Assembly: GCA_964610305.1 (NCBI GenBank)
Contig: CAZSVL010000001.1
Location: 108,781 to 172,780, forward strand
Length of the DNA stretch: 64,000 nucleotides
Origin: an uncultured Gammaproteobacteria bacterium
GTDB lineage: Bacteria; Patescibacteriota; Patescibacteriia; Magasanikbacterales; JBBTXJ01
Direction of reading: 5' to 3'
Part shown: piece after piece, positions 9,374 to 59,049 of the stretch
Layout: every line of letters begins with the position of its first letter
Position numbering within the stretch: the stretch's first letter is position 1
Made by a program: the position numbers and the translations under genes
The notes under the pieces: generated by a model
Told to the model about the DNA's origin: nothing
What the model saw: only the letters and a program-made list of their open reading frames with translations
Database searches by the model: none

Positions 9374-9408
9374 GGGAGTAGTATATCATGAGTATACGCT
9401 AGCATCCA

Positions 9409-9437: not shown

Positions 9438-9460
9438 ATCTGGTTGAAAAAGGAGGATAC

Positions 9461-10195
9461 ATGAACGCTCAAATTGAAGCTCTTGTCGCTCAGTGTGTGG
9501 CAAACGGCAAGATGGATCAGGCTGTTGCCGCCTCTCAGCTTAGAAGCGTACCGGGGCTGCGTCTAAGAGAAATTAGGAAGTTGGCCTTGCGCAGAGCGCG
9601 CAGCGCTTGGGTTGACGGAGTGTTGCAGGTTGCTAAGCTCAGAATAGAGATGGCACAAGGAGTCATTGAAAATCTGCATAAGCAGATGCGAGAGCTAGGC
9701 GGCTTTGATAGCGACTTTGACAAAAAGGACGAGTGGCTTAGAAGCAAGAGGCCCGCTGCATGGGCGGATCTGCAGACGTGTCCAGAGCTGCGGCAAATCA
9801 GAGAAAACTATTTTGCCGTAAAAGATCTTAAGAAACGATTAGAAAAGAATAAGGGCGTGACCCCAGAAGAGGCTGACCAGCTTATTGTTAGTTGCGTGCC
9901 GTTGCAACGCATTGATCAGGCTCTGCGCGCTAGCGCATTGGGCGCCTCTGCACGGGGAAACAGTTTTCTTGTCGTGGAGCTTATCTCAGATAGGCATAAG
10001 CGCTACAACGATGCTGCAGCGGTAGCAAGGCGCGGAGTAGCCAGAGAGGTGCTGGACGCTCTGATTGCTGCGTGCGTAAACGCAGGGGCCGTAGAAGTTG
10101 CCGTGGGTGTGGCGCAGATGCGTTCGGCGAGTGGCTTAACAACCAATGAGCTTGCAGCTCTAACGCAAGCATGCTCGGAGCGGGCACAGCAGTAA
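9461..10195 (+). CDS. hypothetical Ala-rich protein
   Basis: ORF-track 9428 (GTG) to 10195; internal ATG at 9461 sits 5 nt after a strong SD and is the likely start; moderately GC-rich; no recognised domain. Confidence 0.5.
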   Translation: MNAQIEALVAQCVANGKMDQAVAASQLRSVPGLRLREIRKLALRRARSAWVDGVLQVAKLRIEMAQGVIENLHKQMRELGGFDSDFDKKDEWLRSKRPAAWADLQTCPELRQIRENYFAVKDLKKRLEKNKGVTPEEADQLIVSCVPLQRIDQALRASALGASARGNSFLVVELISDRHKRYNDAAAVARRGVAREVLDALIAACVNAGAVEVAVGVAQMRSASGLTTNELAALTQACSERAQQ

Positions 10196-10237: not shown

Positions 10238-12892
10238 TGCGGTTCTATTTTCTGTCTTTGTTTTGATGCTCGTTGCAATTCTGAGTTTATCATCTGCTAC
10301 AGATACAAGTACATTGTCTCCTTCGGAGATGGTGCCCTCAATGAGCTGCAAAGCAAGAGGGTCTAGTAGTTCATGCTGGATTACGCGCTTGAGCGGGCGC
10401 GCTCCATATTTTTCATCATAACCTTTTGCTGCCAGCCATTTCTTGGCAGGAGGTGTAAGTTCAATAATTATTTTTTTCTCCGCAAGCCTTTTTGCCACCA
10501 AATCTAGCTGAAGCTGCGCAATGGAGCCAATGTGCTCTTCTTTAAGAGCGTGGAAGGTAATAATTTCATCAACGCGGTTGAGGAATTCAGGTTTAAAGTG
10601 ATCTCTGAGGGCATCAGTGACTTTTTCCTTGATTCTTTCGTCTGCTGAATCGCCATTATCCTGGCCAAAACCAAGACCGCTTCCAGAGCTCACCAGCGCG
10701 TCTGACCCAATGTTAGACGTCATTATGATAACCGCGTTTTTAAAGTTTACCGTGCGCCCCTTGGCATCGGTAAGACGGCCATCGTCAAGAATTTGCAAAA
10801 GCATGTTAAATACGTCTGGATGGGCCTTTTCAATCTCATCAAACAAAATCACGGCGTAGGGCCTGCGCCTAATTATCTCAGTGAGTTGTCCACCCTCTTC
10901 ATAGCCAATGTATCCGGGAGGGGAGCCTATCATTTTGGAAATGGCGTGTTTCTCCATGTACTCTGACATATCCACGCGTACCAATGATTGTTCATCATTA
11001 AACATAAACTCAGCAAGCGCTTTTGCTAGCTCTGTTTTTCCAACGCCGGTTGGTCCCATAAAAATAAAGGATCCAATGGGTCTGTCTGGTTCTCCTACGC
11101 CCGCGCGCGATCTGCGGATAGCATTTGCGATGGCGGCTATGGGTTCTTTTTGTCCGATTACTCTCTTTTGGAGTTCTTGCTCTAAGCGCGTCAGTTTGTG
11201 TGCCTCGTCTTCAAGCATTCTGCTGATGGGTATTCCGGTCCACCGGCTTACCACTGCGGCAATGTCTTGCTCGGTCACCTCTTCTTTTAGGATTTTTCTG
11301 CCTTTTTGAATCTCTGCAAGTTTTTTTTGCGCTTCTCTGACAGCCTCCTGCGCAGCTGGAATTTTTCCGTATCTAATTTCAGCTACTTTCTGAAGATTTC
11401 CCTGACGCTCTGCAATTTCTGCTCCTTGTTTGTATCCATCTATCTTTTTTTGATATTCACGCAAAGAACCAATAATTTCTTTTTCATTTTTCCAATGGAG
11501 TTCCCACTCTTTTGTGTTTTCGGTGATTTCTGCCAGCTCTTTCTCTAAGTTTGAAAGGCGCTCCTTTGAGTCATCATCCTTTTCTTTTTTTAATGCCTGT
11601 TTCTCGATCTCTAGCTTAATTTGCTTGCGTTTCAGTTTATCTAGCTCTGCTGGCATAGAGTCTATCTCCATTCTTAGAGCTGATGTTGCTTCATCCACAA
11701 GATCTACTGCCTTATCTGGCAAGAAGCGATCAGAGATGTAGCGGTTTGATAGTTCTGCTGCAGCAATGATGGCGTGATCCGTAATGCGTACACCGTGGTG
11801 AACTTCATACTTTTCCTTGATACCGCGCAATATGGCAATAGTGTCATCCAAATCTGGCTCGGACACAAGCACTGGCTGGAAACGGCGCTCTAGCGCTGCG
11901 TCTTTTTCAATGTATTTCTGGTATTCCTTAAGCGTAGTTGCCCCAATAGCGCGCAGCTCTCCACGAGCAAGAGCAGGTTTTAACATATTACTGGCGTCAA
12001 TGGCGCCTTCGCTGCCTCCAGCTCCTACAATAGTATGAAGCTCATCAATAAATAAAACAAAACTGCCTTGCGCCTGTTTAATTTCCTTAATTACGGCTTT
12101 GAGCCGCTCCTCAAATTCACCTCTAAATTTTGTTCCTGCCACAAGTGAGCCAATATCTAGTGAGATCACTTCTTTGTCTTTGAGCGATTCGGGAACATCG
12201 CCATCTGCAATACGCTGGGCAAGCCCTTCAATAATAGCTGTCTTACCAACGCCGGGTTCTCCAATGAGAACGGGGTTGTTTTTTGTTCTGCGAGAGAGTA
12301 CCTGCATGACGCGTCTTATCTCATCATCTCTTCCAATTACAGGGTCTAGCTTTTCCTCTCGTGCTTGCGCGGTTAAATTAACGCTATATTTTTCAAGAGC
12401 GTTGTAGCGTGCCTCTGGTTCAGGGGAGTCTACCGTTTGAGTTCCACGTACCGTAGCTAGTACTTTAAGTACTTCATCAAAGGCAATATTGTGTTGTTTA
12501 AAAATTTGAGCGATGGTGGACTTGGATCTTAAAAGACCCATAAGTAGGTGTTCGGTGCTGATATATTTGTCTCCAAGTCTTTTGCTCTCTTGCGCGGCAA
12601 AGTTAAGAACGTGGGCCATGTCGTGACTCATGTAGATTTGTCCAATGCCGGTTCCGCCGCTCACGCCAGTGTGCTTAGGCAGCTTATCAATAAGCTCCTG
12701 CATATGTGTCTTCAGTAGGGTGGTGTCGGCATTGAGTTTGTTGAGCACAGAAATAACAACGCCATCTTCTTGTTCAAGGAGTGCAAAAAGCAAATGCGGG
12801 GGGTCAATTTGTGGTTGGCCGTTTTCTTGAGCCAATAAGTGCGCTCTCTGGATTGCCTCCTGAGATTTTGTTGTAAAATTATTGGGGTTCAT
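10235..12892 (-). CDS. clpB: ATP-dependent chaperone ClpB (AAA+ disaggregase)
   Basis: 885 aa; Clp N-domain, two Walker A sites ([16 protein letters not shown]), coiled-coil middle domain. Confidence 0.95.
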
Positions 12893-18337: not shown

Positions 18338-18401
18338 TAAGTAGTAATTCTTAAATAGTGCTTAAAAATGGCTAAATTAAGCTATTTTTTTAGTTTATGA
18401 C

Positions 18402-18430
18402 TTGACAAAATGGGCAAAATGTGCTATAGT
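18402..18430 (+). promoter_or_regulatory. sigma70 promoter TTGACA-17-TATAGT with TGTGC extension
   Basis: ttgaca 18402-18407, 17-nt spacer, tatagt 18425-18430 preceded by tgtgc. Confidence 0.65.
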
Positions 18431-18517
18431 AGTATAGTCCTCAAAATGGGATAGCCGTACCTGGCACCGTTTTGAGGGTGACGTATCTAACAAAACACAC
18501 ACACCTTAGGGGATTCA

Positions 18518-19570
18518 GTGACCACTAACCTTCGTGAAGAGTTTGACGCCCTCACGGGTACCGATGAAATGAGCGTTGAGGGTGCACTGGAGCACCTTCG
18601 CACTCAGGTGCGGGAAGAGGCCTGCGTTTTTGACGCTCCGGCCATGCTAGAGCAGCTTGACATGATCGCTTTGGTGGAGGAGGGGACTATTGTTCCGGCC
18701 GAGCTGGAGCTTGAAGTCTGCGAGCCTTCTTTGGACGAGCTGGTGGAAGCTGCTCTGGACCGAGAGGATCCAGAAGTGGACCGCGAGCTGGTAGAGAGTC
18801 TGCTCGGAGAGGATGATGGCTTTGAGGGCGGAGCGGTCTTCTATGCCCAGGACATGGCAGACGCTGGCTGGGAGCTCTCTGATCTGGATCACCTTCGTGG
18901 TCTGGAGGCGCTCTCTGACTCTCCGGAGCTAGAAGCGCTTGACGTGGACTACTGGGATCGGATGGACGTCTTGGACGCCCAGGAGAGGGCCCGACGCGCC
19001 AAGGCGTGGAAGTCCTTTTCAACCGACCCGGAGCCCCGCTTGCGTAGGCTGACGGTCATTTCCACTACCGTAGCTCGTGAGGAAGAGACGTACGTGGACA
19101 TCACCGTCTCTGACGGCGAGCACGCGGTGGCCACTTCTGAGCATTCGGTCTACATTCATCAGGATGTCCGTGGTGTTGCTGTGGTGAAGGCCACGGCTTG
19201 GGACATCTCTGACGATCAGATCGTTTACATCAGCGGCTGGGATGCCGTCTTGCGGGGAATCGCTCGTACGGGTATCTTCTTTGCGGTGCACATGGAGCAG
19301 ATCATCAGTCGCGCAAAGCCTAGCGCCTCTAGTGACCCTGCGATCGGCAAGATCGTGGTGGCCAAGGTCGTCAAGCACCTGCGCTCCGGCGTTTTGGTGC
19401 GAAACGAGCACGGTCAGAAGGGTCTGATCGGTGTGGAGACGATCAAGGGAGTTGGCTCAGCAGCCAACGCCATGTCGTTCCTTCGCTCCAAGTGTCCTGT
19501 GGGTCGTGAAGTGACCGTAGAGATCGTGGCTCGCCGCGATCAGGGCGATTTCGTCCTGAAGCTCTCCTAG
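18518..19570 (+). CDS. hypothetical acidic protein with C-terminal S1/OB-like domain; GC-anomalous gene
   Basis: 350-aa ORF with GTG start; about 58-60% GC against about 45% in flanking genes; no stop for 350 codons is highly non-random at this GC; D/E/L-rich N-terminal half; C-terminus GKIVVAKVVKHLRSGVLV...GLIGVETIKG...VTVEIVARRDQGDFVLKLS resembles an S1 domain. Confidence 0.6.
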   Translation: MTTNLREEFDALTGTDEMSVEGALEHLRTQVREEACVFDAPAMLEQLDMIALVEEGTIVPAELELEVCEPSLDELVEAALDREDPEVDRELVESLLGEDDGFEGGAVFYAQDMADAGWELSDLDHLRGLEALSDSPELEALDVDYWDRMDVLDAQERARRAKAWKSFSTDPEPRLRRLTVISTTVAREEETYVDITVSDGEHAVATSEHSVYIHQDVRGVAVVKATAWDISDDQIVYISGWDAVLRGIARTGIFFAVHMEQIISRAKPSASSDPAIGKIVVAKVVKHLRSGVLVRNEHGQKGLIGVETIKGVGSAANAMSFLRSKCPVGREVTVEIVARRDQGDFVLKLS

Positions 19571-19592
19571 GTCTTTAGTAACAGTTAGTTAA

Positions 19593-19629
19593 CCCCCCTT
19601 GTGGTCAACATGATCACGAGGGGTTTTTA
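19593..19629 (+). terminator. intrinsic terminator after the GC-rich ORF
   Basis: hairpin ccccttgtg...cacgagggg (19593-19624) followed by TTTTT. Confidence 0.6.
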
Positions 19630-19635
19630 TTTAGG

Positions 19636-19664
19636 TTGACTTTCGGGGCTTAAAATGGTACGAT
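19636..19664 (+). promoter_or_regulatory. promoter-like TTGACT-17-TACGAT
   Basis: ttgact 19636-19641, 17-nt spacer, tacgat 19659-19664; located directly after the preceding terminator. Confidence 0.45.
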
Positions 19665-19669
19665 CTGCT

Positions 19670-19870
19670 CTCACCATGAGGGAGGACATGTGAGGCTACG
19701 CTTAGAATTCTGGCGACACAGACAGGTTTTGCTAAGCCGACAAATTGGCGAGCCTGAGGTAAGGCGTAGGGGAGTTAGGCCAAGGATTGTATATCTGCGG
19801 CGCATGAGTATGAGAAGAATTGGACGTAGGTAAAGTCAAGTCAGGCTAAGTAGGCAAGCCTGACTTTTTT
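19670..19870 (+). ncRNA. candidate small RNA (about 200 nt, promoter-to-terminator, no ORF)
   Basis: bounded by the promoter-like element above and a perfect 8-bp hairpin gtcaggct (19840-19847) / agcctgac (19857-19864) plus T6 (19865-19870); GC-rich; contains only tiny ORFs. Confidence 0.4.
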
Positions 19871-20840
19871 AATCTGCCTTTTTGAGAGGATGAAAGTCTG
19901 TATGTGTCTTTTCTGCAAAGCGGTCAGATGCATGCACGTAACGCGTTGTGGTATCTAGAGATTCGTGGCCTAAAAGCACCTGAATGGCGGCCGGGTTCGC
20001 TCCGGATTCTGCCAAGTACGTAGCAAAACCATGTCTGAGGGTGTGCGCAGAGATGGGTACATTAATACCAAGAAGCTCTCGGTATTTTTTTATTTTTGAC
20101 TGAAGATAGTTAGGCGATATTCTTCGCTTTTTACTGCCATCTTTTGATCCTGAGCCGCGGTACGGAATAAAAACTGCCGGTGCTTCATCATCTCTGAGTT
20201 TTAGATATGCTTGCAGGTGTCTATACGCACGTGGCGTTAAATACACAAATCTCTCTTTTCGGCCTTTGCCTTTTATAAAAATGCGACCAGAGGAGTCAAT
20301 TTGATCTCGGTTAAGGTTCAGCAACTCTGAAATGCGCATGCCAGTGGAGAAGAGTACTTCAAGCATGGCACGGTTACGCTGGGCGAGGAGGGGATTTTTC
20401 TCAAGCTCTGATGGGGACTCAATAAGCGCCACAAGTTCATTGAGCTCACCAACGCGCGCATGTTTCTTATCGGTTTTAACTAATCTAATGGCACCCGCAG
20501 CAAGAGGGTAGGGGAGGTCCATTTCTACCAAATATTTGAGGTAGGCGCGCAGTGAGCTCAAGTGGCGGTTAACAGAGAACGGTGTAAGCTTTTGCTTTGA
20601 TTTTGATTTTGTTGGGGTAACTCTGTCGGTAGAGTAGAGGTAGGCCTTGTATTGCTCAATGACCTTTTTATCAATGCTTTTAAACGCAAGGCCATGCTCT
20701 GTCATAAAGTGTGAAAAGACCAGCAAGTCTCGCTCGTAATTATAAAGCGTTTCTTTGGAATAGTTATTAGTTTGCAGTGACAATAAGAAGTCATCTAAGT
20801 GATGAAGAGATTGGTTACCTGTGGATAACTTTTTGCTCAT
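19869..20840 (-). CDS. xerC: tyrosine recombinase XerC/XerD family
   Basis: C-terminal catalytic region ...HTLRHGFATYLAESGANPAAIQVLLGHESLDTTTRYVH (R..H..R..Y tetrad context); N-terminal core-binding domain. Confidence 0.9.
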   Translation of the reverse strand: MSKKLSTGNQSLHHLDDFLLSLQTNNYSKETLYNYERDLLVFSHFMTEHGLAFKSIDKKVIEQYKAYLYSTDRVTPTKSKSKQKLTPFSVNRHLSSLRAYLKYLVEMDLPYPLAAGAIRLVKTDKKHARVGELNELVALIESPSELEKNPLLAQRNRAMLEVLFSTGMRISELLNLNRDQIDSSGRIFIKGKGRKERFVYLTPRAYRHLQAYLKLRDDEAPAVFIPYRGSGSKDGSKKRRISPNYLQSKIKKYRELLGINVPISAHTLRHGFATYLAESGANPAAIQVLLGHESLDTTTRYVHASDRFAEKTHTDFHPLKKAD

Positions 20841-26107: not shown

Positions 26108-26211
26108 GCAAGCAGTATAGTTTTTTAGCTGAATTTAGTCAATAAGAAAACCGACCGTGTGTGGCTGGTTGGTGCTTTTTTGCATCTTTGGCGCGAAGTT
26201 GTTTGAATAAT

Positions 26212-26379
26212 GCTGTAGGCTGTAGGCTTTATGCTGTATGCCCTTTTAGCGTCATGCTGAATTTAATTCAGCATCCAGTTAGGAAACTAAGACTTACTCA
26301 ATTTTTACCCTAGATTCTGAATCAAGTTCAGGATGACATGTCGATACCTTACAGTATAAAGCCTACAGCCTACAGCATC
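26212..26379. repeat. composite palindromic element: 29-31-nt outer inverted repeats flanking an 87-nt GTCATGCTGAA...TTCAGGATGAC hairpin unit (MITE/REP-like)
   Basis: left arm gctgtaggctgtaggctttatgctgtatgcc (26212-26242) is the reverse complement of acagtataaagcctacagcctacagcatc (26351-26379); inner unit 26251-26337 with internal palindromes gctgaatttaattcagc and ctgaatcaagttcag; a related copy lies at 40169-40340. Confidence 0.7.
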
Positions 26380-26417
26380 TTGCATATAGCCAAACACTCA
26401 TGGCGCGGTACGGCCGG

Positions 26418-33108: not shown

Positions 33109-36054
33109 TCATGCTCTAAATTCGCATATGTCTTTAAATTCACAGTAGTTGCAGGTCACCGGATTTGGCTTTGGAGAGAATTCTCTCTTTTGGATTCCAG
33201 CGATCAAGGTTAGAATGGTTTCTTTGTATGTCTGCAAGTCCTGCTCTGTACCGCTAAAAGATTTTTCGCTGCCGTCGCTTAGATAATAATACGTAAGCTG
33301 CATGGGGCCGCTTGCGTGCAGCTCTGGCATCTCTTTTGCTGCCATTTGATACAAAAGCAGCTGCTGCTTATCCGTAGGAGAGAGTCTCTCTTTGGGCCGA
33401 CCCGTTTTGTAATCTATAATGGTTAGCTGATTGCCTTCTTTATCAATGCGATCAATAAACCCGCGTAGCGTATGAGATTCAACTTTTAGCTTAAATCCTT
33501 TCTCTAGCAGCAGTGGTATTGTCCACCCTTTTTCTGACTGTTGTTTATAAAACAATTGTAGCATGTTTTGGCCTTCCTCAAAATATGCAGCGCGTTGCGT
33601 GTCATCAATAAACCAGTCATCTCTCCAGAGTTCTTTGTAGATTGTAAGCAGCTCTGGCAGAGCTGGCACGAACACGCCTTCACCCTTTGGTGTGGGCTCA
33701 GAGAATAAATCTGCTTGCTTTGTTGCGTTAAGTTCAGCGACGCGCTGATAAAAACGCTGTAATGTTGCGTGAATAGTGTTACCAAAAACCATGGCAGCTG
33801 ATTGCCTACTTTTAATACCTAAGACGTGCGCATATTTATACTGCAAAGGACAATCGGCATAAGATTTAAGTTGGCTGTGTGAATAACTCTTTGGCAACGG
33901 CAGCAGTGGATTCTGGCTTTTTGGTTGTAGATCTGTTTTTGCTACTTTGAGAATATCAAACGTAGATTCTGGCAACGTGTTTTCAATCCCAGCTTCTTTG
34001 ATAAAGCGTGAAATCTTGCGCTGAGTTTTTCCTCCGTAGGATTGCGCGCTGGTGAGCGTTACTGATAGCCGTGCTCTGGTTAGGGCAACATAAAAGAGCC
34101 TTCTCTCTTCTTGCAAATGGTGATCACCTTCTGGAACATTCTCCTTTATAAGCGCCTCAGGGATCTGAATTTTCTCCCTGCGTCCTCTGCTAGGAAATCG
34201 CTGCTCAACCATGTTTACTATAAACACATGGTCAAATTCTAGTCCTTTAGCGCTGTGCGCCGTTAAGAGCGCAACAGCATCTTGTCCAAAACCTGCATCT
34301 GTTGGGCTGCTCCCCTGCTCTCCACTTGCAAGTAAATCTTGCGTAAACAGTACAAATTCTTTTGCAGACATTTCTGCTGCCTGCGTCTCTATCATCTCAA
34401 AAAATGCTTTAAGCTGGAGCAGATCATCTATTGCCGATGGCTCTCCAGATTGTTCAGCGAGCGTCAAAGATTTCAAATAACCGGTTTCCTCCAAAAAAAT
34501 TAGCAGTACATTAGTAATGCTACTCTTTTTCTCTGCCCGCGCGCCATTACTTACAGAAGACAGAAGCTTTTTTATTTTTGAATGACCATCTTGCGACAGC
34601 ATGATCAGCCCTTGAGAGACAAGTTTGAGGACATCAGATAATGTCTTGCCTTTTCTCTCGCTTGAATTCCACAGTATGCTCTGATCCTCGTGGCTGAGTG
34701 TAAAGGGTGGCAGGCGCAAAAGTCTAAACCATGCGTTTTGATCATGAGTATTGTTTACAGCGCGCAGCACGGCAATACAATCTAAAACTACTCTTGTTTT
34801 AAGCAGGCCAGTCGCGGCGCCATAGTGGCAAGGAATGTGAGCATTTTGTAGTCCGCGTAAAAAAGGTTGAATATGCGTATTGGCTCTGGCGAGTATTGCT
34901 ATGTTTTGTGCCGGAGTACCATCTTCAAGAAGCTCCTGAATTTTTTTGACCACGGTTTGTACCTCAGTGTCACTGGTGTCTACATGTAGGTGAGATACCG
35001 CGCCCTTTGACGGGTTGTTTGCTGTTAGTTTTTTATCAATGTTTTGACGAACTTCAAGACGATCAGGATTATTATTTTGTATAAGAGTATATGCAGCGTC
35101 TAGTATACCCTGACCGCTTCTGTAGTTTTCTTTTAGGATAATGGTCTTTGCGCCGTCAAAATCTTTAGCGAAAGACAAGACATTGCTGACCGAAGCGCCG
35201 CGCCACTTATAAATGCTCTGATCGTCGTCTGCCACAACGGTTAAATGCTCGCCATTGCCAGATAACTTTTTGATTAGTTCGTACTGTGCGTAATTAGTAT
35301 CCTGAAATTCATCAACCAGTATATACTGGTATTTTTTTTGAAGAGCTTCTTTTATGTTTGGTCTTTGCTCAAGCAAGGTGTTGCTGTAGCTGATTAAATC
35401 CCCAAAATCAAGAAGGTTTTCTTTTAGCTTGAGTTGTTCAAAAGTGTGATATGCACGCGCCACCTCATCAATGCGCGCATATTCAAGCATGTCAGAGTCT
35501 TCTTTTTCAATCTGTTTTTTTGACATTGACCTTCTATACTCGGCTATATCAGTGTCGCCTCTGAGCTCTGTTGCGTATTGCAAGTAGTGTTCTGGCGTAA
35601 TAAGCTCATCTTTGCAACGCGAGAAATGTTGGAGGAGTGCAGAAATAAGTGACGTAGGATTTTGAAATGGTCGGTAGTAATGCAGATCAAATTGATCCAA
35701 GTTGTTTTTAAAAAGTTGCCAGCTTTGGGGTGGCGTAATGAGTTTAAAAGGGGTTGGCAATCCTAAATCTAAACCGTATCCCTCTAGTATGTTTTGACAA
35801 AATCTGTGAAAAGTTCCCGCAAAGATGTCAACGGGTTTTTGAAGAAGAGAATCCACACGTTCAGAAAGCTCGGTTGCTGCTTTTTCAGTAAAAGAGAGGG
35901 CAACAATGCTTTGTGGGTTAGCACCATTGCTTAGCAGCTCCGCAACGCGCCTCGTGATAACCGTTGTTTTCCCTGTCCCGGCGCCAGCAATAATTAAAAG
36001 AGGACTTTTTGTGTGAGACACGGCCGCTTGCTGTTGGCTGTTGAGGCTATCCAT
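33109..36054 (-). CDS. ATP-dependent helicase-nuclease: UvrD/PcrA-family SF1 helicase fused to a C-terminal Cas4/AddB-like PD-(D/E)XK nuclease with Cys cluster
   Basis: N-terminus AGAGTGKTTVITRR (Walker A) and UvrD motifs; C-terminus GFIDRID...IIDYKTG (PD-(D/E)XK) and YADCP...CNYCEFKDIC four-Cys motif; likely start MDSLNSQ (cat 36052-36054). Confidence 0.85.
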   Translation of the reverse strand: MDSLNSQQQAAVSHTKSPLLIIAGAGTGKTTVITRRVAELLSNGANPQSIVALSFTEKAATELSERVDSLLQKPVDIFAGTFHRFCQNILEGYGLDLGLPTPFKLITPPQSWQLFKNNLDQFDLHYYRPFQNPTSLISALLQHFSRCKDELITPEHYLQYATELRGDTDIAEYRRSMSKKQIEKEDSDMLEYARIDEVARAYHTFEQLKLKENLLDFGDLISYSNTLLEQRPNIKEALQKKYQYILVDEFQDTNYAQYELIKKLSGNGEHLTVVADDDQSIYKWRGASVSNVLSFAKDFDGAKTIILKENYRSGQGILDAAYTLIQNNNPDRLEVRQNIDKKLTANNPSKGAVSHLHVDTSDTEVQTVVKKIQELLEDGTPAQNIAILARANTHIQPFLRGLQNAHIPCHYGAATGLLKTRVVLDCIAVLRAVNNTHDQNAWFRLLRLPPFTLSHEDQSILWNSSERKGKTLSDVLKLVSQGLIMLSQDGHSKIKKLLSSVSNGARAEKKSSITNVLLIFLEETGYLKSLTLAEQSGEPSAIDDLLQLKAFFEMIETQAAEMSAKEFVLFTQDLLASGEQGSSPTDAGFGQDAVALLTAHSAKGLEFDHVFIVNMVEQRFPSRGRREKIQIPEALIKENVPEGDHHLQEERRLFYVALTRARLSVTLTSAQSYGGKTQRKISRFIKEAGIENTLPESTFDILKVAKTDLQPKSQNPLLPLPKSYSHSQLKSYADCPLQYKYAHVLGIKSRQSAAMVFGNTIHATLQRFYQRVAELNATKQADLFSEPTPKGEGVFVPALPELLTIYKELWRDDWFIDDTQRAAYFEEGQNMLQLFYKQQSEKGWTIPLLLEKGFKLKVESHTLRGFIDRIDKEGNQLTIIDYKTGRPKERLSPTDKQQLLLYQMAAKEMPELHASGPMQLTYYYLSDGSEKSFSGTEQDLQTYKETILTLIAGIQKREFSPKPNPVTCNYCEFKDICEFRA

Positions 36055-36080
36055 GGTGGTCAGTTTAACACAGCGTATGA

Positions 36081-36123
36081 AAATTAAAAAAGGCACACAA
36101 TGTCCGGCAGGATAGAGTGTGCC
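36081..36123 (-). terminator. intrinsic terminator (minus strand) in the alr 3' region
   Basis: hairpin ggcacac (36092-36098) / gtgtgcc (36117-36123); plus-strand A-run 36084-36091 gives a T-run on the minus strand. Confidence 0.45.
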
Positions 36124-36260
36124 CCGTGAGGCGGCTAACGCACCTCGGTGACAGTTCTTGAACTTTCACGATGACGTGCAATCAAAGCAAGAAAGCGAAG
36201 GGGTTAGCCTCTTGCGAGCCCTTCTTAACAGGAGGAGTATAACGCACGCGCCTTTTTTTG

Positions 36261-37367
36261 TCAAGAAACAAAGCGTCTTTGGACTCTGTTGCCAAAGCTG
36301 CAGATGACGTCATACGGATGCGTGCCTTTTTTACGCGCCCATTGTGCTACACGCAGCTCATTGTCTAGTAGCACTACTTCATCACCTACCTCAGCCTGTG
36401 GTACATCATCAAGCAGAACCGTTGTGTAATCCATGCTAATGCGTCCTATCATGGGGCATTTTATTCCGTGCACTGTAGCCTGCCCGTTGTTGGTTAGCGC
36501 AAAGGGTATTCCATCTGCATAACCGGCGGCTATGGTGCCTACGGTGCATGGTTTTTGCAGTGTGTACATTTTTCCGTAGCCAATACTGCTTCCCGCGGGC
36601 AGTTTTCTTACGGCAACAAGTTTTGATTTTAGTGTCATGGCCGGAAGCAGATTGTAGGCTCGGTTTCCTTCTATGTCAAAAATGCCGTATAGGTTTATTC
36701 CTGTACGGACTCCGGTAAATGGGTGACTATAGCTCTCCGGGATATTATTTATAGCGTCAGAGCTGCCTATGTGGATATTTTTAAAAGTTATTCCCCTACT
36801 CCTAAGCTTTGACAGAAGATTTGTAAAAGTTTCTATCTGAGAGATGGTAAATTCTCTATCTCCGTAAGCGTGGGGAAAATGAGAATATATGCCGGCTATA
36901 TTTAATTTTGGAAGCGAGCAGATTTCTTCAATTACCGATACAATATGGCCACCCGTCATTCCTAACCTTCCCATGCCAGTGTCTATAAGTAAGTGACAGG
37001 TAGCAGTTTTGCCTTGTTTGCGAGCCTCTAGACTCAAGCGGTATGCTGTGCGGCGATCCCCAATAGGCGCTACAATATCATGTTGTATTACTGCAGGGAT
37101 TTCCTCTTCTAAAAGTGTGCCTACAATATGGGGCTTTAGACCAGCTTTTTTTATCCACAAGGCTTCCCGAAGATCCGCAAGTCCCACCGATGTTGCTCCT
37201 GCATGAGCAAGTGTCTTGGCTATCATTTGGGGCTCACCAAGGCCGTAGGCATTAGCTTTAAGAACTGGCATTACCTCTAGTGGACTTACTTTTTCTTTGA
37301 TTGTCCTAAAATTGTGAGCTATGGCGCTCAGTTTTATTTCTAGCCATACGCGCGCATAATTTTGCAT
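36261..37367 (-). CDS. alr: alanine racemase
   Basis: PLP-lysine motif VLKANAYGLG, GRISMDY and the second catalytic-Tyr region. Confidence 0.9.
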   Translation of the reverse strand: MQNYARVWLEIKLSAIAHNFRTIKEKVSPLEVMPVLKANAYGLGEPQMIAKTLAHAGATSVGLADLREALWIKKAGLKPHIVGTLLEEEIPAVIQHDIVAPIGDRRTAYRLSLEARKQGKTATCHLLIDTGMGRLGMTGGHIVSVIEEICSLPKLNIAGIYSHFPHAYGDREFTISQIETFTNLLSKLRSRGITFKNIHIGSSDAINNIPESYSHPFTGVRTGINLYGIFDIEGNRAYNLLPAMTLKSKLVAVRKLPAGSSIGYGKMYTLQKPCTVGTIAAGYADGIPFALTNNGQATVHGIKCPMIGRISMDYTTVLLDDVPQAEVGDEVVLLDNELRVAQWARKKGTHPYDVICSFGNRVQRRFVS

Positions 37368-37392: not shown

Positions 37393-37792
37393 AATAAAAA
37401 AAATGCCCCCGCTGCGTTACAAGAAGGCAGCGAGGGCGGTGTAGGTGCGCGTTTACGCCTTTGTTGGGGATAAGGCTCCCCTTGGCCGTAGTGATTGGGT
37501 GGATCAGGCGCGCTGTGAGCGCATTATCCTCCGCTTTCGCGCTATGAGGAACCCTTTGGGGTGATCAGCCCAGACTAATACCGCAAGGCGGTGTTTTCTC
37601 ATTAGTCCTCAATACCTTTTGATCAGTCTCTCCTTGCCTCTCGGCTTTCCCTATTATATGGGTGCTGGCGTCCCAGCTGTGGTCTATCCCCTGCGTTCGT
37701 TTTTTTTGGCGTTAGGCCTGCAAGTGGAGCTCCCGGGGATAAAAGGAAGCATGCCGCCTGCCTCGCGAAAAGAGCAGCCATGGCTCATTCCG
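37393..37792 (-). ncRNA. candidate structured RNA, unit B (about 400 nt, GC-rich), own promoter and terminator, immediately upstream of alr
   Basis: minus-strand promoter 37800-37828, intrinsic terminator hairpin gcccccgctgc/gcagcgagggc with T-run (plus coordinates 37393-37437), no long ORF, about 57% GC; shares a conserved core with unit A, with compensatory changes. Confidence 0.5.
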
Positions 37793-37799
37793 TTAACAC

Positions 37800-37828
37800 A
37801 GTATAGCACAAAATACGCATTTTGTCAA
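37800..37828 (-). promoter_or_regulatory. minus-strand sigma70 promoter TTGACA-17-TATACT with TGTGC extension
   Basis: the plus-strand motifs tgtcaa (37823-37828) and agtata (37800-37805), 17 nt apart, give TTGACA-N17-TATACT on the minus strand. Confidence 0.6.
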
Positions 37829-37884
37829 GGGGTAGATTGACAAAATACGCTTATTTTAGCCAATTTTAGGGTCTTATTTTGAGT

Positions 37885-38164
37885 AAAAAAAGGACCCCGC
37901 GAGCATCTACCGTTAAGTAGTGCCACGGGGTCGAGGAAGCTATGAGCAGGTTGGGAGCGCCAGGCGCGTTATTCCTCCACAGCATTTTCAGCCGTATTAG
38001 AGGAGTCCCTTTAGGGGGATCAGCCCAGAGCACAGCCACAAAGTGGTGTTTTTCAGTGCTCTCCTTACTCACGATTACGGTCTCTCCTTGTTGCCCCTAA
38101 GAATTTATCGGGGTCGTGGATGGTGGTCCTGCCAGGGCAGACGTTGAATGGTATTAAAGAATCG
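37885..38164 (-). ncRNA. candidate structured RNA, unit A (about 280 nt), paralogue of unit B
   Basis: minus-strand promoter 38171-38199; terminator hairpin gaccccgtg...cgcggggtc plus T-run (plus coordinates 37885-37932); conserved blocks ...GAAAAACACC-hairpin-CUGGGCUGAUC.CCC.AAAGGG...GGAGGAUAAYGCGC-loop-GCGC shared with unit B. Confidence 0.5.
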
Positions 38165-38170
38165 GATTAA

Positions 38171-38199
38171 AGTATAGCAGAAAAAACGTATTTTGTCAA
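38171..38199 (-). promoter_or_regulatory. minus-strand sigma70 promoter TTGACA-17-TATACT with TGC extension
   Basis: plus-strand agtata 38171-38176 and tgtcaa 38194-38199, spacer 17. Confidence 0.6.
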
Positions 38200-38351: not shown

Positions 38352-39113
38352 TTACAGGGGCTCAATCTTGCCGTTGAGCCTGATAATTCCCATATCAATA
38401 ACGGGAATATTTTGATTTTCTGCTTGCTCCACAAAGGCGCGTGCATCGCGCTGGTGGATCTGCAGCTCCTGCTGAGGATCTGCATGAAGCCCCGGCTCGT
38501 AAGCATCACAGTCTTCATGTTGAAACAGTCTTACACCCAAGCCGCGCTCCGCAGCCCAAGCAAAGAACTGCCGACCAGCCTCTGTTCCAACAAGCGCCTT
38601 TGCAGCGCCCGGGACAACAAAGCTGTATGAGTCTGGGTTACGGTACTCAGTTCTGATCATTTCAAAAGGCGTGCGGTAGTCGCAGCAGCATACCGTCACG
38701 GTATTCCAATCATCAGGTGGGCTGCTCTCTGGGTTTCCTTCTCTTACAAAAAGGTTATGAGACAAGCTGGTACGGCGATCATCCTTTCTAAGCAAATCAA
38801 TAATGACAGATGCTGCTTCAATACATGCCAGGCCATCATCGTCAATGAGCGTAACGTGCGTGGGATTATGCAAGGTAAGAAGTGTGGTAATAAAACCAAG
38901 CATTTCTTTGGTGAGCGCATCATTTTCCGCACCGTTGATCACCGCAATAGGTCGCGGGATCCGCAGCACATCGGCCTTTCCTTCTTCTAGATACCTTTCA
39001 ATCACCCGGTTTGCCTGCGGATGAGATGGAGCAATGATTAAACGAGCAATGGACGTTTCTGTCACGCTTCCCTCCTCTGGTGAGCGGCGCGGCGTAGTAT
39101 ACGCATTTGTCAT
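38352..39113 (-). CDS. hypothetical protein (weak LmbE/PIG-L-like resemblance)
   Basis: 253-aa ORF; SHPQAN and HNPTH segments faintly recall the HPDDE/HxDH motifs of LmbE-like deacetylases but are not conserved; CCCDYR and HEDCD cysteine-containing segments. Confidence 0.45.
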   Translation of the reverse strand: MTNAYTTPRRSPEEGSVTETSIARLIIAPSHPQANRVIERYLEEGKADVLRIPRPIAVINGAENDALTKEMLGFITTLLTLHNPTHVTLIDDDGLACIEAASVIIDLLRKDDRRTSLSHNLFVREGNPESSPPDDWNTVTVCCCDYRTPFEMIRTEYRNPDSYSFVVPGAAKALVGTEAGRQFFAWAAERGLGVRLFQHEDCDAYEPGLHADPQQELQIHQRDARAFVEQAENQNIPVIDMGIIRLNGKIEPL

Positions 39114-39174
39114 CCATTTGTCAAGCTATCTTTACTAATCTTTTTGAGATTGAAGCGGCGTTTCCTTTTTAGAC

Positions 39175-55050: not shown

Positions 55051-55338
55051 CTACTCCTCTGGCCAGATTTGATTGCCCTTTGCGTCATAAACAATGATAG
55101 CGTTGGTGGGGCAGCTTTGGGCTGCAAGCAGGAGTGTCTCGTCGTCATGAGCATCTGGGTCAACCAAAAAAGCTAGATTTTCATCGTCTAGTTGGAAGGT
55201 TCCCGGCGCTACGGCAATACAAGAGGCCGCACCTATGCAGGCATCTCTATCTATTACCACCTTTCTATATTCCTTATCCTCAGAGCGTGTGCCCGTTTCA
55301 ATATCTCCCTCCCTTTCTACATTTTTTTGTTCAGACAT
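55051..55338 (-). CDS. ferredoxin (single Cys-cluster, 3Fe-4S/4Fe-4S type)
   Basis: CIGAASC...CP cluster-binding motif in a 95-aa acidic protein. Confidence 0.8.
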   Translation of the reverse strand: MSEQKNVEREGDIETGTRSEDKEYRKVVIDRDACIGAASCIAVAPGTFQLDDENLAFLVDPDAHDDETLLLAAQSCPTNAIIVYDAKGNQIWPEE

Positions 55339-55443
55339 AGTGCCATTTTAGCATTGTAGTATAAAAAGAGCCACAGCAGCTTTTTTCATTTTTTTTGGTT
55401 TCTGAAATGTGGCTAATTTAAGCCAATTTTGTCAAGTTACCTC

Positions 55444-55472
55444 TTGACAAAATTGACAAAGTGTGCTATACT
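55444..55472 (+). promoter_or_regulatory. sigma70 promoter TTGACA-17-TATACT with TGTGC extension; 38-nt sequence duplicated at 57377-57414
   Basis: ttgaca 55444-55449, spacer 17, tatact 55467-55472; ctcttgacaaaattgacaaagtgtgctatactgctttt is identical at both sites. Confidence 0.65.
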
Positions 55473-55479
55473 GCTTTTG

Positions 55480-56162
55480 TTGCGTTAAGACAGTTCTGCG
55501 CCCACTTCTGTTTCTGTCTTTTGGGTAGTACGGAGCTTGTGCCGAAAAAGGCCCTTAGCGTAACGCTCTTTTTGAAAAGTGTTGGTTTTCCTGCCAGCGC
55601 GCAATGGAGGATGTAGTATGTCTGAAAGGCCCGATCTGCCGCCCGCCTTGTGGAGGCCCGCAGTATTGGAGTCCGTCAGGCCCAGGATCTCAATGGTGAT
55701 TGAGTGAACGGAGCACGGTTGTGGCTAGCGCCTGGCGCTAGGGTTGCTTGCCTCCACAAGCAGCACTTTCCATGTCTGTGGGAGGTTCAACTAGCTAGAA
55801 AGCTTGCAGGAATTCACCGTTTTCTGTGTATGGCCGGCATACTTGCTGACGCGGGGTGCGAGAGATCGCAGCCGAACCAAACCGCTCAGTTAGCGTGGCC
55901 ACGTAGTGGTCGGCTTGTAAAGCTTGTGAGGAGCTACTGATCCTCTGTGGTGATCCCATGGAGGAGCCCACAAGCTGGTATCCTATGAGAGGCTGAAGTG
56001 ATGCAGACCTCTACTCGCCTAACAGTGAGAGCCTTTGCAAGGGCCAGTACGACGCTCCCGCGGGGAGAGTACGTGCAAGGATATTACACAGAAACGTCAC
56101 AAGCGTGGTACTGCGCAGGTTCCACGTGGCCCTCGTCGACAACCGTTGACGAGGGCTTTTTT
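55480..56162 (+). ncRNA. candidate long GC-rich noncoding transcript (about 680 nt), promoter to terminator, no long ORF
   Basis: starts about 8 nt after the -10; ends at hairpin gccctcgtcgac/gttgacgagggc (56129-56156) plus T6; about 57% GC; long-range helix gccttgtggaggc (55645-55657) / gcctccacaagc (55750-55761); contains a 29-codon ORF with perfect SD at 55618-55707. Confidence 0.4.
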
Positions 56163-56164
56163 AA

Positions 56165-56746
56165 TTATAGTCCTAAAAAAAGATCGTCTCCCAATTCTAA
56201 ATCTTCAAATTCCCCTTTTGTGTAATCCCCTTCTGGGAGTTTGCGCGCCGCTTCTACTTTTGAAGCTGCCTCCGGGGGGATGACCTCTGAGATTATGTTT
56301 CCGTTAACGGCTATATTGTTTGCTACTTCACAATAGCCCAGGCAGCCTCTGTATTGCAGAGAGACTTCCTCACTTTCTTGCCCTTCTTTGATTCCAAAGT
56401 GATTTTCTAGCTCTTGCATAATATAGCGCGCATGCTTGGGGCCGCAGGTTTTGGAATCGCAGACTTCAATTCGATCTACCTTTTTGTCATCCCGGACTAG
56501 ATCCGGGATCTCAAGTGATGCGTCTACCGACGATTTTTTACTTGAGATCCCGGATAATTCACTATGTGAATTTCCGGGATGACAGGTGGAGGGTTGTGAA
56601 TTTCCGGGATGACAGATTGGTTTGTTTTGTCCGCATGTGCAGTTTTCGCATTTTGACGGGATCCCTCGGCTCTCCTGCGGATCGCTCGGGGTGACGGGTG
56701 GGTTACCCATAGTATTTTTCGCTATAAAATCTAATGAGTTGCTCAA
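56165..56746 (-). CDS. thioredoxin-like [2Fe-2S] ferredoxin (NuoE-like); N-terminal region of uncertain reality
   Basis: C-terminal CDSKTCG ... GCLGYCE (C-x4-C ... C-x3-C); the N-terminal about 90 codons translate the CCGGGATGACAG repeat elements and overlap the upstream NifU gene by 44 nt, so the true start is probably internal. Confidence 0.65.
   Translation of the reverse strand: MSNSLDFIAKNTMGNPPVTPSDPQESRGIPSKCENCTCGQNKPICHPGNSQPSTCHPGNSHSELSGISSKKSSVDASLEIPDLVRDDKKVDRIEVCDSKTCGPKHARYIMQELENHFGIKEGQESEEVSLQYRGCLGYCEVANNIAVNGNIISEVIPPEAASKVEAARKLPEGDYTKGEFEDLELGDDLFLGL
56486..56615. repeat. GTCATCCCGGAC...TTCCGGGATGACAG hairpin element with tandemly duplicated right end, embedded in the 5' part of the 2Fe-2S ferredoxin ORF
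   Basis: termini gtcatcccgga (56486-56496) and tccgggatgac (56573-56583); inner inverted repeat ccgggatctcaagt/acttgagatcccgg; second copy of gtgaatttccgggatgacag at 56596-56615. Confidence 0.65.
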
Positions 56747-57362
56747 TTTCCGGAATGCTCTCTGGCGAGCCCACTCCTACTTTTAGTTTTTTTTGTACCT
56801 CTTCTATGGTTTGAGCCCCTTCAAGCACTGCTTCTTCTATATCTTTGTCTGTAATATTTAAAACGGGATCAATTATTTTTGCCGCAACCACTTTTATTCT
56901 GTCATGTTGGCCAGTGTTTCTAAAATATTGATTGATGGCTTTTCTGAAGGCCTTGTCTACCAAAACACTGCAGTGGATTTTTCTGTTTGGTAGTCCTCCT
57001 AGGCGTTCCATTATGTGTTGAGGTTTTACGTTTAGTGCTTCCTCTATAAGCATTCCACCGTTTTCTGTGATCATAACAGAGAACATGCTGGTGGCAGCAA
57101 TGGCAGATCCGCATCCAAAGGTTTTCCATTTCAATTCAGTAATGTTTTCAGTGTCTGAAACGTTAATCCATACATCCATAACGTCTCCGCACGCAGGTGA
57201 TCCTACGGTGCCGCGTGCATCAAAGCTGTTTTCATCAGGTTCTTCTAGGAGTAAATTCTTTGGATTAAAAAAATGGTCTTTTACGATGTCTGAATATACC
57301 CAGGATTCTCCTGTGTGATCATTGACTACGTCTTTCCCCTTTTTTTGTGTAATTTTAGCCAT
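56703..57362 (-). CDS. NifU/IscU-type Fe-S cluster scaffold protein with C-terminal extra domain
   Basis: GSPACGD, FGCGSAIA and HCS cluster-ligand motifs; likely start MAKITQ (cat 57360-57362); ORF-track start 57395 overlaps the divergent promoter. Confidence 0.85.
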   Translation of the reverse strand: MAKITQKKGKDVVNDHTGESWVYSDIVKDHFFNPKNLLLEEPDENSFDARGTVGSPACGDVMDVWINVSDTENITELKWKTFGCGSAIAATSMFSVMITENGGMLIEEALNVKPQHIMERLGGLPNRKIHCSVLVDKAFRKAINQYFRNTGQHDRIKVVAAKIIDPVLNITDKDIEEAVLEGAQTIEEVQKKLKVGVGSPESIPEIEQLIRFYSEKYYG

Positions 57363-57379
57363 TTTTGTGTGTTTAGCTC

Positions 57380-57408
57380 TTGACAAAATTGACAAAGTGT
57401 GCTATACT
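57380..57408 (+). promoter_or_regulatory. second copy of the TTGACA-17-TATACT (TGTGC) promoter
   Basis: ttgaca 57380-57385, tatact 57403-57408; fires into the iscU-iscS intergenic region; T7 at 57521-57527 after a structured 100-nt segment. Confidence 0.6.
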
Positions 57409-57741
57409 GCTTTTAGATGGTAATGCTGGTGCTGGATGAGGGATGCGATGTGTTGCAAAGGCCTTGTGACATGTTGTAGACCGCTTGAGTTCAGGCCGAC
57501 ACCAGTCGGAAATTAAGGCGTTTTTTTCTCGAAGCCAGCGGAATATGCGCAGTTATGTATTGCCAAAGGATACGGCTCCTGAGGGCGGGCGGCGCGTACT
57601 GCTTCAAAAACATTACCATCTAACCTCTCTTCTTCACCCTGCAGCTTGCGTCTTTGACGTGGCGGCTGTAGCCTCTGCCTAAGGGCACGACTGTAACAGT
57701 CGTTGGTGAAAACAGACACACCGGTCTGAAGAGGGGATTTT

Positions 57742-59049
57742 TTATTTCATCCAATGCGGCTTTCCTTCCCCGACAAATGCCTTTTGCATGGTCGGTTTTT
57801 TGTTATCCTCTGTTGGTTTGCCCGCATCATCCAGCTTAAGATTCACCGGAGAGATATCGCGCAGTCTCTGAACAATCTCTGGCAGCAAATTCAGTACATA
57901 ATCTAAGTCTTCTTTTGTGGTGCTTCTTCCTAGCGTAAATCTCATACTTCCGTGTGCGTATTCGTATGGTTTTCCGATAGCAAGAATAACATGTGACGGA
58001 TCTAAAGACTCAGACGTGCAGGCGCTTCCGGTAGACATGGCTATTCCGTACTCATCAAGGTACAACAAGAGTGCCTCGCCTTCAATATCTAAAATACTGA
58101 CGTTTACATTGTTGGGCAAACGCTCTGTCACGTGTCCATTGATTACTATTTTTGGAATTCTCTTTATTATTTCCTGAGTAAAGTAATCGCGAAGTTTTGT
58201 TAGTCTTTCAGATTCGCTTTGTGCATCAGCTCGTACAATTTCTACGGCTTTTGCGAGTCCCACAATGCCAGCAACATTTTCCGTACCAGCACGCATACGC
58301 ATTTCTTGTCCTCCGCCGTGGATGAGTGGCTTTATTTTTACGTGATCAGCTTTATACAAAACACCAACTCCCTTTGGGCCGTAAATTTTGCTTCCGTTAA
58401 AGGTAAGTAAGTCTGCATGTAATTTTTTTACATCAATGTCTAGGTAATTTATTGCTTGGCATGCATCGGTATGGAGATAGGGAGCCTTGTTGGGCTTTAT
58501 ATCATTATCTTTTTTCCATCGCAGGAGAGCCCTGCCGATATCGGCAATAGGATTAATGCTGCCTATTTCATTATTGGCGTACATGACGGAGATTAAAATA
58601 GTATCATCTTTGAGCGCAGCAATAACATCCTTTGGACTTACCATTCCAAATTCGTCAGTATCCAAATACGTAACCTCAAAGCCTTCTTTCTCTAGCGCCT
58701 GGCAGCTGTGCAGCACGGCGTGATGTTCAACTTTGGTGGTTATAATGTGACCGCTCCCCTGCTTTTTGGCAACGCCATAGATGGCCATATTGTCACTCTC
58801 TGTTCCAGAGCCGGTGAAAATTATATTACGTGGATTTGCTCCCAGTGCCTGTGATACGGTTTTGCGCGCCCGATCCACAGCGAGTTTTCCGTTTCTTGCT
58901 TTTTTATACAAGCCTCCCGGATTTCCAAATTCCTCTTTTAAAAAGGGTGTCATAATTTCAAAAACCGCTTGCTCAAGCGGTGTTGCTGCGGCGTGATCAA
59001 GGTATACCCGCCGTCTATTCTCTACTTTTGGAAATGGTTTAAAATCCAT
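57742..59049 (-). CDS. iscS: cysteine desulfurase (IscS/NifS class V aminotransferase) with C-terminal extension
   Basis: PLP-lysine context ...FNGSKIYGPKGVGVL... and catalytic-Cys loop STGSACTSESLDPSHV. Confidence 0.95.
   Translation of the reverse strand: MDFKPFPKVENRRRVYLDHAAATPLEQAVFEIMTPFLKEEFGNPGGLYKKARNGKLAVDRARKTVSQALGANPRNIIFTGSGTESDNMAIYGVAKKQGSGHIITTKVEHHAVLHSCQALEKEGFEVTYLDTDEFGMVSPKDVIAALKDDTILISVMYANNEIGSINPIADIGRALLRWKKDNDIKPNKAPYLHTDACQAINYLDIDVKKLHADLLTFNGSKIYGPKGVGVLYKADHVKIKPLIHGGGQEMRMRAGTENVAGIVGLAKAVEIVRADAQSESERLTKLRDYFTQEIIKRIPKIVINGHVTERLPNNVNVSILDIEGEALLLYLDEYGIAMSTGSACTSESLDPSHVILAIGKPYEYAHGSMRFTLGRSTTKEDLDYVLNLLPEIVQRLRDISPVNLKLDDAGKPTEDNKKPTMQKAFVGEGKPHWMK

Follow-up and report, generated by a model that had tools for sequence, protein, structure and literature searches.

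In phages, morons are autonomous cassettes of promoter, gene and terminator that lie between two genes found side by side in related genomes. Few bacterial noncoding RNAs exceed 500 nt, and most of these have proved to be biologically remarkable. Known large RNA classes, including OLE, GOLLD, ROOL, HEARO and raiA, were established on conservation and covariation. To our knowledge, the CPR/Patescibacteria are nearly unexplored for RNAs. Here we describe a unit, named u55, in a 64,000-nt stretch of DNA (hereafter the window) from an uncultivated CPR bacterium, which shares features with both morons and large RNAs. Like a moron, u55 has its own promoter and terminator, a deviant base composition, and intact flanking genes that are adjacent in relatives. 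Unlike a moron, it is located in a core chromosomal operon among housekeeping genes instead of a prophage, carries a cargo devoid of coding signal, and is directed against the host operon. Like the large RNA classes, u55 is longer than 500 nt, GC-rich relative to the genome, and intergenic and stand-alone, and it has a palindromic segment and numerous predicted hairpins. None of their covariance models matches it, however, and it occurs once in one genome, with neither the conservation nor the covariation on which these classes rest.

u55 is a plus-strand promoter-to-terminator unit in the gap 55339-56164, between the minus-strand genes fdx (55051-55338), encoding a 4Fe-4S ferredoxin (Fer4_13/15), and a thioredoxin-like 2Fe-2S ferredoxin (56165-56746; hereafter 2Fe-2S). 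Both the coordinates and the gene calls agree with the gap described in the first-pass annotation, which had been made from the sequence alone. The genes nifS, nifU, 2Fe-2S, fdx and rsmI form a minus-strand operon behind a promoter at 59103-59075 (P_nifS), and the direction of u55 is antisense to this nifS-nifU-ferredoxin operon. Housekeeping genes in the neighbourhood encode MetRS, RsmI, NifS, NifU, GluRS, Alr, an AddA-like helicase, ClpB, MreB and ATP synthase epsilon. The GC3 of native genes in the window is 0.35-0.45, and TGA is among their stop codons. Searches with NifU led to Patescibacteria (CPR), and the nearest species representatives are Candidatus Magasanikbacteria, with 77% NifU identity. 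The G+C content of u55 is 0.54-0.575 in 200-nt windows, compared with ~0.43 in the surroundings and 43-44% in the genome, an excess of 11-14 points over the background. The longest ORF in the gap is at most 82 codons. The GC-richness and the lack of any longer ORF, both pointed out earlier, were thus borne out by the windowed GC values and the ORF list.

The u55 promoter (55444-55472, plus strand) consists of a -35 box TTGACA, a 17-nt spacer with a TG extension, and a -10 box TATACT. It matches the consensus at 11/12 positions and is the sole such site in the surrounding 2 kb in a consensus scan. A perfect 13-nt inverted repeat, CAATTTTGTCAAG / CTTGACAAAATTG (55424-55455, plus strand), overlaps the -35 box. 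From the position of the -10 box and the promoter/terminator geometry, we infer a plus-strand transcript of ~685 nt (55479-56163) starting at G55479. The intrinsic terminator (56128-56163, plus strand) has a stem at 56128-56157 with 13 pairs, 8 of them G-C, and a 4-nt loop, followed by T6. Its stem has a pair probability of 1.00 in the thermodynamic ensemble, in line with the strong terminator that had been noted. This terminator is expected to work one way, because the minus strand carries no T-run after the stem. No gene that u55 could regulate lies 3' of it on the plus strand, where the terminator faces the 3' end of a convergent gene. A cis-regulatory leader or riboswitch is not supported, since the unit ends in a terminator and is followed by no downstream gene on the same strand. 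The proposal of a self-contained promoter-to-terminator unit without coding signal, opposite the Fe-S/ferredoxin operon, is supported.

Compared with relatives in which 2Fe-2S and fdx are adjacent, the window carries an inserted segment of ~800 bp (55362-56160, plus strand). For example, in the relative L083, whose proteins share 81% (2Fe-2S) and 85% (NifU) identity with those of the window, 36 nt separate the 2Fe-2S stop from the fdx start, and blastn aligns L083 positions 1509->1538 to window positions 56178->55359. The two genes are likewise adjacent in the more distant relatives L087 and L012. Adjacency in three relatives indicates that this arrangement is ancestral and that the ~800 bp were gained in the lineage of the window. 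On the basis of gene order, u55 is a derived insertion that arose later than the split from the nearest sampled relatives, and selection may have yet to act on such a young insertion. Among the relatives at 85%, 81%, 70% and 67% identity, retrieved via the 2Fe-2S protein, u55 is absent or the contig ends at the site. The contig of the 85% relative L082 stops 170 nt beyond the 2Fe-2S gene, within a fragment that is most similar to genes annotated as IS200/IS605 tnpA, in the same spacer and the same orientation, which indicates that the spacer has been hit independently. An independent Logan assembly (L085) joins the body of u55 to the 2Fe-2S and nifU genes on one contig. The 38-nt promoter core is repeated in the window and could have led to a misassembly, but this was rejected, because the Logan contig has the same join and joining the repeats the other way would produce a circle of 1.9 kb.

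Homologues of u55 were searched for at the RNA and DNA levels. In Rfam 15, no family matched u55 at the gathering score and E<=1 over the whole window, and none matched at E<=10 in sub-regions of 951 nt and 431 nt. An Rfam/Infernal search of the plus strand had been suggested earlier as a check, and it returned only junk matches, namely PyrR and SpF51 on the terminator, and SNORD38. No covariance-model match in u55 was obtained for OLE, GOLLD, ROOL, HEARO, raiA, tmRNA, 6S, SRP, riboswitches or introns, and ARAGORN predicted no tRNA or tmRNA in it. Using blastn, no homologue was detected in 80 species-representative genomes and 80 metagenome contigs fetched via NifU (best NifU identity 77%). 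Across 286 loci totalling 2.5 Mb, the sole blastn match was the identical Logan contig. Phage and plasmid collections gave no blastn match, and none of three exact 20-21-mers of u55 was found in IMG/VR. Each of six flanking proteins, including those of the adjacent genes, is alone in its 90% cluster among 15 billion sequences. Smith-Waterman alignment showed no similarity of u55 to u57, u37a, u37b, u18 or u19, other units in the window. No homologue of u55 was therefore found in the searches made, and this lack of conservation is among the observations that the first-pass annotation had listed as speaking against its own proposal. If u55 encodes a noncoding RNA, this RNA is probably new and lineage-specific.

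With the terminator included, the predicted minimum free energy (MFE) of u55 is -279 kcal/mol on the plus strand (z=-2.85) and -237 kcal/mol on the minus strand (z=-2.35). Without the terminator, the MFE z-scores are -2.0 and -1.4, respectively (100 shuffles), and the strand preference by z-score is small. Coding controls gave z-scores of -2.7 (u18 ORF) and -2.1 (metRS). Thermodynamic support for a u55 structure is weak, because its z-scores are within the range of these coding controls. The predicted 5' domain (55479-55573, plus strand) is closed by an 11-bp helix, 55479-89 / 55554-64, with a pair probability of 0.91, and is followed by a U-run that could possibly act as an early stop. Hairpins with a probability of at least 0.9 are predicted at 55579-600, 55620-81, 55743-64, 55766-85 and 55942-64. 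The 3' segment 56086-56114 (plus strand) is predicted to pair with 55613-18, 55714-17, 55719-23 and 55824-29, each with a probability of at least 0.90, and would close the RNA body. Long complementary arms are also present at 55522-44 / 56095-117. The 11-nt arms CUUGUGGAGGC / GCCUCCACAAG (55647-55760, plus strand) are complementary and compete with local hairpins. They belong to the long-range complementarity noted earlier between gccttgtggaggc and gcctccacaagc, which amounts to 11 contiguous pairs (55647-57 with 55750-60) or 14/16. This complementarity exists in the sequence, but the pairing 55647-57/55750-60 is disfavoured in the thermodynamic ensemble, with a probability of ~1e-4 and a forcing cost of 4.4 kcal/mol.

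A self-search of the window indicated that the promoter region of u55 (55402-55478) recurs at 57350-57414 (89% identity across 65 nt and the same spacer), at 37869-37799 on the minus strand, and at 18361-18428. The core TTGACAAAAT-N8-TGTGCTATA, allowing 0-1 mismatch, is located at 18402, 37828, 38199, 39175, 55444 and 57380. In a promoter census of the 64 kb, 11 sites matched at least 11/12 consensus positions, and the six that are TG-extended are exactly these six core positions. The u55 promoter is thus real, as had been claimed, but it is not exceptional, since sites of this quality are common in the window. Five of the six TG-extended sites drive GC-rich units. The core pattern also matches >120 phage contigs in IMG/VR, indicating that the pattern is generic and uninformative. 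The shared module is largely the general consensus promoter of the organism. Upstream of it, the palindrome TGGCTAATTTAAGCCA, TGGCT-N6-AGCCA (5-N6-5; 55410-55425, plus strand), is centred ~62 nt before the inferred start. With at most 2 mismatches it occurs only at 18369, 37847 and 55410, while the copy at 57346 has 3. Each copy is located 33-34 nt before a -35 box. A centre near -62 is the geometry typical of class I activator sites, and the palindrome is a candidate activator site that the sister units may have in common, where a protein could possibly bind.

The closest sister unit, u57 (57346-57745, plus strand; RNA 57412-57745), is located between nifU and nifS, antisense to the same operon, and carries the same promoter module. 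Like u55, it has an elevated G+C content and a terminator that adjoins the stop codon of the upstream gene. The transcribed parts of the two units, however, share no sequence similarity, and u57 is found in three genomes (it is conserved in L083, L084 and L082) while u55 is found in one. RNAalifold predicted 87 pairs for u57, of which 31 have compensatory changes on both sides, including the 12-bp closing helix, and the MFE z-score is -3.9 for the plus strand, compared with -0.95 for the minus strand. u57 is a conserved, previously undescribed structured RNA that is specific to this clade. It has no Rfam match, and a covariance model of its 3' domain retrieved only the training sequences among ~95 CPR loci. 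The nifS-nifU gap is 5-50 nt in most outgroups, which makes u57 a clade-specific insertion as well, older than u55. In other CPR lineages, the nifS|nifU junction carries unrelated opposite-strand cassettes with a promoter beside nifU and a small orphan ORF.

Two further units, u37a and u37b (37395-38199, minus strand), are tandem paralogous promoter-to-terminator units with an RNA-like character. They are related to each other with a Smith-Waterman z of 18.9, and compensatory stems distinguish them: GAGAGCAC/GUGCUCU vs GGACUAAU/AUUAGUCU, and CCAC/GUGG vs CCGC/GCGG. The unit u18 (18369-19625, plus strand) has the same promoter module and contains an ORF (18518-19570; GC3 0.68) encoding a 350-aa acidic orphan protein. 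An exhaustive HMMER search with this protein yielded three remote C-terminal matches only, and no viral relative was found. Its AlphaFold pLDDT of 42 is too low for use. The general pattern appears to be that autonomous cassettes with variable cargo enter operon spacers, a moron-like architecture in a core chromosome.

With a probability of about one half, we consider u55 to be an autonomous, strongly expressed noncoding RNA gene that was gained as a moron-like cassette and is possibly co-regulated with its sister units. A cassette with a noncoding RNA as its cargo would have entered the 2Fe-2S/fdx spacer after the split from the nearest sampled relatives. The housekeeping RNA polymerase would start ~7 nt past the TG-extended TATACT, near G55479, and transcribe ~685 nt counter to the nifS-nifU-ferredoxin operon, stopping at the 13-bp hairpin and U-run right before the 2Fe-2S stop codon. 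The predicted fold of this GC-rich RNA comprises several hairpin domains joined by the 3' strand 56086-56114. Its role may be that of a stable structured RNA working in trans, e.g., a protein-binding scaffold, and it may be co-regulated with three other units via the common palindrome at ~-62. If u55 is functional, it would represent a class of large RNAs whose origin can be dated, since a relative with 81% (2Fe-2S) to 85% (NifU) protein identity lacks it, and would provide a rare view of the birth or acquisition of an RNA gene in minimal genomes.

The wider pattern, several unrelated GC-rich units behind one promoter module, two of them antisense within the Fe-S cluster operon, may outweigh u55 itself. 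It suggests that highly expressed RNAs and small orphan proteins are added to operon spacers in a cassette-like manner. More speculatively, and with considerable doubt, this small symbiont-type genome might hold a co-regulated, lineage-specific set of strongly expressed GC-rich RNAs (u55, u57 and u37a/u37b, together with the orphan protein of u18) under one promoter module with the ~-62 palindrome. Such a genome would keep gaining autonomous cassettes, u57 in the ancestor of the clade and u55 in the species, and the ~685-nt u55 would be a new large noncoding RNA class shortly after its birth or acquisition.

The alternative that survives best, although we regard it as unlikely, is a recent neutral or selfish insertion, in which DNA entered an insertion-prone spacer with, or beside, a local copy of the consensus promoter, and the transcript has no selected function. 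u55 is a singleton found in one genome only, and its folding z-score is unexceptional. The IS200/IS605 element in the same spacer of L082 and the unrelated opposite-strand cassettes at the nifS|nifU junction of other CPR lineages are also in keeping with such an origin. Against this reading speak the completeness and exact placement of the promoter, together with a possible operator and a strong terminator, and the great compactness of the genome. Moreover, no traces of a transposase or of another gene are present in u55, and all other testable noncoding units with the module are structured RNAs. If u55 is neutral after all, then a promoter, a terminator and GC-richness together over-predict RNA genes where near-consensus promoters are common.

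The position of u55 could also point to cis-acting transcriptional interference. The strong convergent promoter would collide with operon transcription from P_nifS, pairing with antisense read-through transcripts would uncouple fdx-rsmI from nifU-2Fe-2S, and the RNA body would be irrelevant. u55 and u57 both lie within one and the same minus-strand operon and are oriented opposite to it, with promoters adjoining the start of the downstream gene and terminators adjoining the stop of the upstream gene. The u55 terminator does not halt minus-strand transcription, and the promoter census found no separate strong promoter for fdx. Interference of this kind, however, makes 650 nt of GC-rich sequence unnecessary and does not account for the RNA-level covariation in u57. 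Furthermore, u37a, u37b and u18 have the same promoter type and are not so placed within operons. We consider this reading improbable as the role of u55.

The coding potential of u55 was assessed by base composition, periodicity and protein searches. The GC values at the three codon positions are flat in u55 (0.57/0.53/0.54), compared with 0.69/0.40/0.68 in the coding unit u18. No 150-nt sub-window of u55 shows codon periodicity: the maximum is 0.13, while the 95th percentile of the null is 0.18 and u18 gives 0.16-0.42. The six-frame pseudo-protein of u55 matched nothing at E<=0.01 among 5.8 billion proteins, which makes it unlikely that u55 is a pseudogene or a piece of coding DNA sequenced so far. 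A leader peptide or dual-function RNA had been suggested on the basis of a GGAGGA motif and a 29-codon ORF (55606-55707, plus strand). The motif (55606-55611) is indeed present, 6 nt before the ATG at 55618, but a coding role did not hold up, and we judge the ORF to be noncoding. It has no periodicity and no homologue in the six-frame search, and only one of four GGAGG motifs in u55 has a start codon at the right distance, as expected by chance. One frame lacks TAA and TAG over ~200 codons; an alternative genetic code was rejected for it, since native genes use TGA stops and the frame is aperiodic.

That u55 is the mRNA of a small protein, encoded by the ORF 55618-55707 or another short ORF and flanked by long untranslated regions, is accordingly very unlikely. 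The GGAGGA motif would suit such an mRNA, and u18 shows that the promoter module can drive a protein gene. The ORF, however, covers only 13% of the transcript, the unit shows no periodicity, the peptide has no homologue, and one start codon among four GGAGG motifs is as many as chance would give. A decayed IS200/IS605 element or another pseudogene is largely refuted. The size of u55 is close to that of IS200, and the tnpA of L082 is at the same spacer in the same orientation. However, tblastn with TnpA found nothing in u55 or in the window, the six-frame search was empty, periodicity is absent, and u55 shows no similarity to the L082 end, the sole end available for comparing subterminal hairpins.

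A resemblance to RNase P RNA had been proposed from AGUCCG (55670-55675, plus strand) and CGGCUU (55911-55916, plus strand) as the 5' and 3' strands of P4. Both hexamers are present and, 240 nt apart, could mimic the P4 helix of type A RNase P RNA, bulged U included, and a hairpin with a GNRA cap recalls P12. The P4-like pairing, however, has zero ensemble probability and a forcing cost of 7.7 kcal/mol, so that neither strand is supported, and the topology is at odds with stronger helices. The conserved regions CR-I and CR-V of RNase P read GAGGAAAGUCC and ACAGAAnnCGGCUUA. At the corresponding places u55 reads UUGGAGUCCG and GUAGUGGUCGGCUUG, where the hexamers alone match; their contexts are UUGGAGUCCG instead of GAGGAAAGUCC and GUAGUGGUCGGCUU instead of ACAGAAnnCGGCUU. 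The universal A-rich motifs are missing, as both GAGGAAAG and ACAGAA are absent from u55. No RNase P model matched u55, either at the gathering score or, with lax filters, at E<=10 in the regions of 951 nt and 431 nt; these searches covered scores of ~15 bits and above. CPR RNase P RNAs are diverged, with helices sometimes extended, and can score under the Rfam thresholds, so that thresholds down to 5 bits can be needed (PMC8172020). u55 is also ~300 nt too long. It is absent at the syntenic site of L083, and no similar sequence occurs in the 2.5 Mb of loci, which counts against RNase P because an essential RNA would be expected in such a relative (81-85% identity). A diverged RNase P RNA with expanded helices, as in some CPR bacteria, can hardly be reconciled with a lineage-specific insertion that is not kept in close relatives, and we consider it highly improbable.

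The palindrome CTAGCGCCTGGCGCTAG that had been noted (55725-55741, plus strand) is likewise in place, as is every other motif quoted in the first-pass annotation. It is a 17-nt perfect palindrome, CUAGCGCCUGGCGCUAG, and its core GCGCCUGGCGC recurs in u37a (~37956-37967).

A structured RNA of ~330 nt, u57, was predicted in the nifU/nifS spacer on the strand opposite to the operon (window 57346-57745, +). Corresponding sequences are located at 125-465 (-) of L083, the locus of the 81% relative, and at 7612-7954 (-) of L082, that of the 85% relative (protein identities). The RNA is kept in three genomes, with compensatory changes at 31 of the 87 predicted pairs and a folding z of -3.9, and has no match in Rfam. 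The outgroups lack u57, and their nifS-nifU spacing is 5-50 nt. Judged from sequence, u57 is a structured RNA not described before.

Enlarged nifS|nifU junctions of 400-900 nt were also identified in other CPR lineages (L089, 715-1608; L099, 216-870; L101, 4309-4971; L013, 5157-5971; L128, 4347-4742). A promoter adjoins nifU in these junctions and is directed away from it, and the opposite strand encodes unrelated small orphan ORFs of 62-165 aa. This pattern suggests that autonomous cassettes have repeatedly been inserted at the junction.

In L082, NifU (8023-9798) is 591 aa long and may contain an intein, with a faint LAGLIDADG_3 match in precomputed Pfam results. The 2Fe-2S|fdx spacer of this relative holds the 3' end of an IS200/IS605 tnpA (10328-10498), where the contig stops.

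Two tandem, paralogous promoter-to-terminator units, u37a and u37b, are located at window 37395-37800 (-) and 37885-38171 (-). They share the core CAAGGAGAGAC ... GAAAACACC ... CUGGGCUGAUC.CCC.AAAGGG and their stems differ by compensatory changes; neither unit matches Rfam.

The u18 unit (window 18369-19625, +) encodes an acidic orphan protein of 350 aa, and the gene of this protein (GC 0.59, GC3 0.68) is preceded by the same promoter module and palindrome as u55, the unit inserted between the 2Fe-2S ferredoxin and fdx genes. No Pfam domain was found in this protein, and its AlphaFold model is not usable. Apart from three distant matches to its C-terminal part, of which two fall in very large proteins, it has no relatives. 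A small unit of ~200 nt (19630-19870, +), with promoter TTGACT-17-TACGAT followed by a hairpin and T-run, adjoins a XerC/D-type tyrosine recombinase gene (19869-20840, -).

Proteins of 255 aa (9409-10195, +) and 253 aa (38352-39124, -), in which no Pfam domains were found, are encoded by genes with raised GC (0.53 and 0.50, respectively). The 253-aa gene lies downstream of a promoter matching 11 of 12 consensus positions (39124-39096), and the 255-aa gene is preceded by a poorer core match with four mismatches at 9409. Both may be lineage-specific cassettes of the kind described above.

At window 36100-36264 (-), another 11/12 promoter within the alr 3' end precedes a GC-rich leader of ~140 nt upstream of an AddA-like helicase-nuclease gene (33109-36096). 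The intergenic region 26108-26417 contains long inverted repeats, gctgtaggctgtaggc and gcctacagcctacagc, on either side of the palindrome tgctgaattaaattcagca; within it, positions 26126-26141 weakly match the TGGCT-N6-AGCCA motif.
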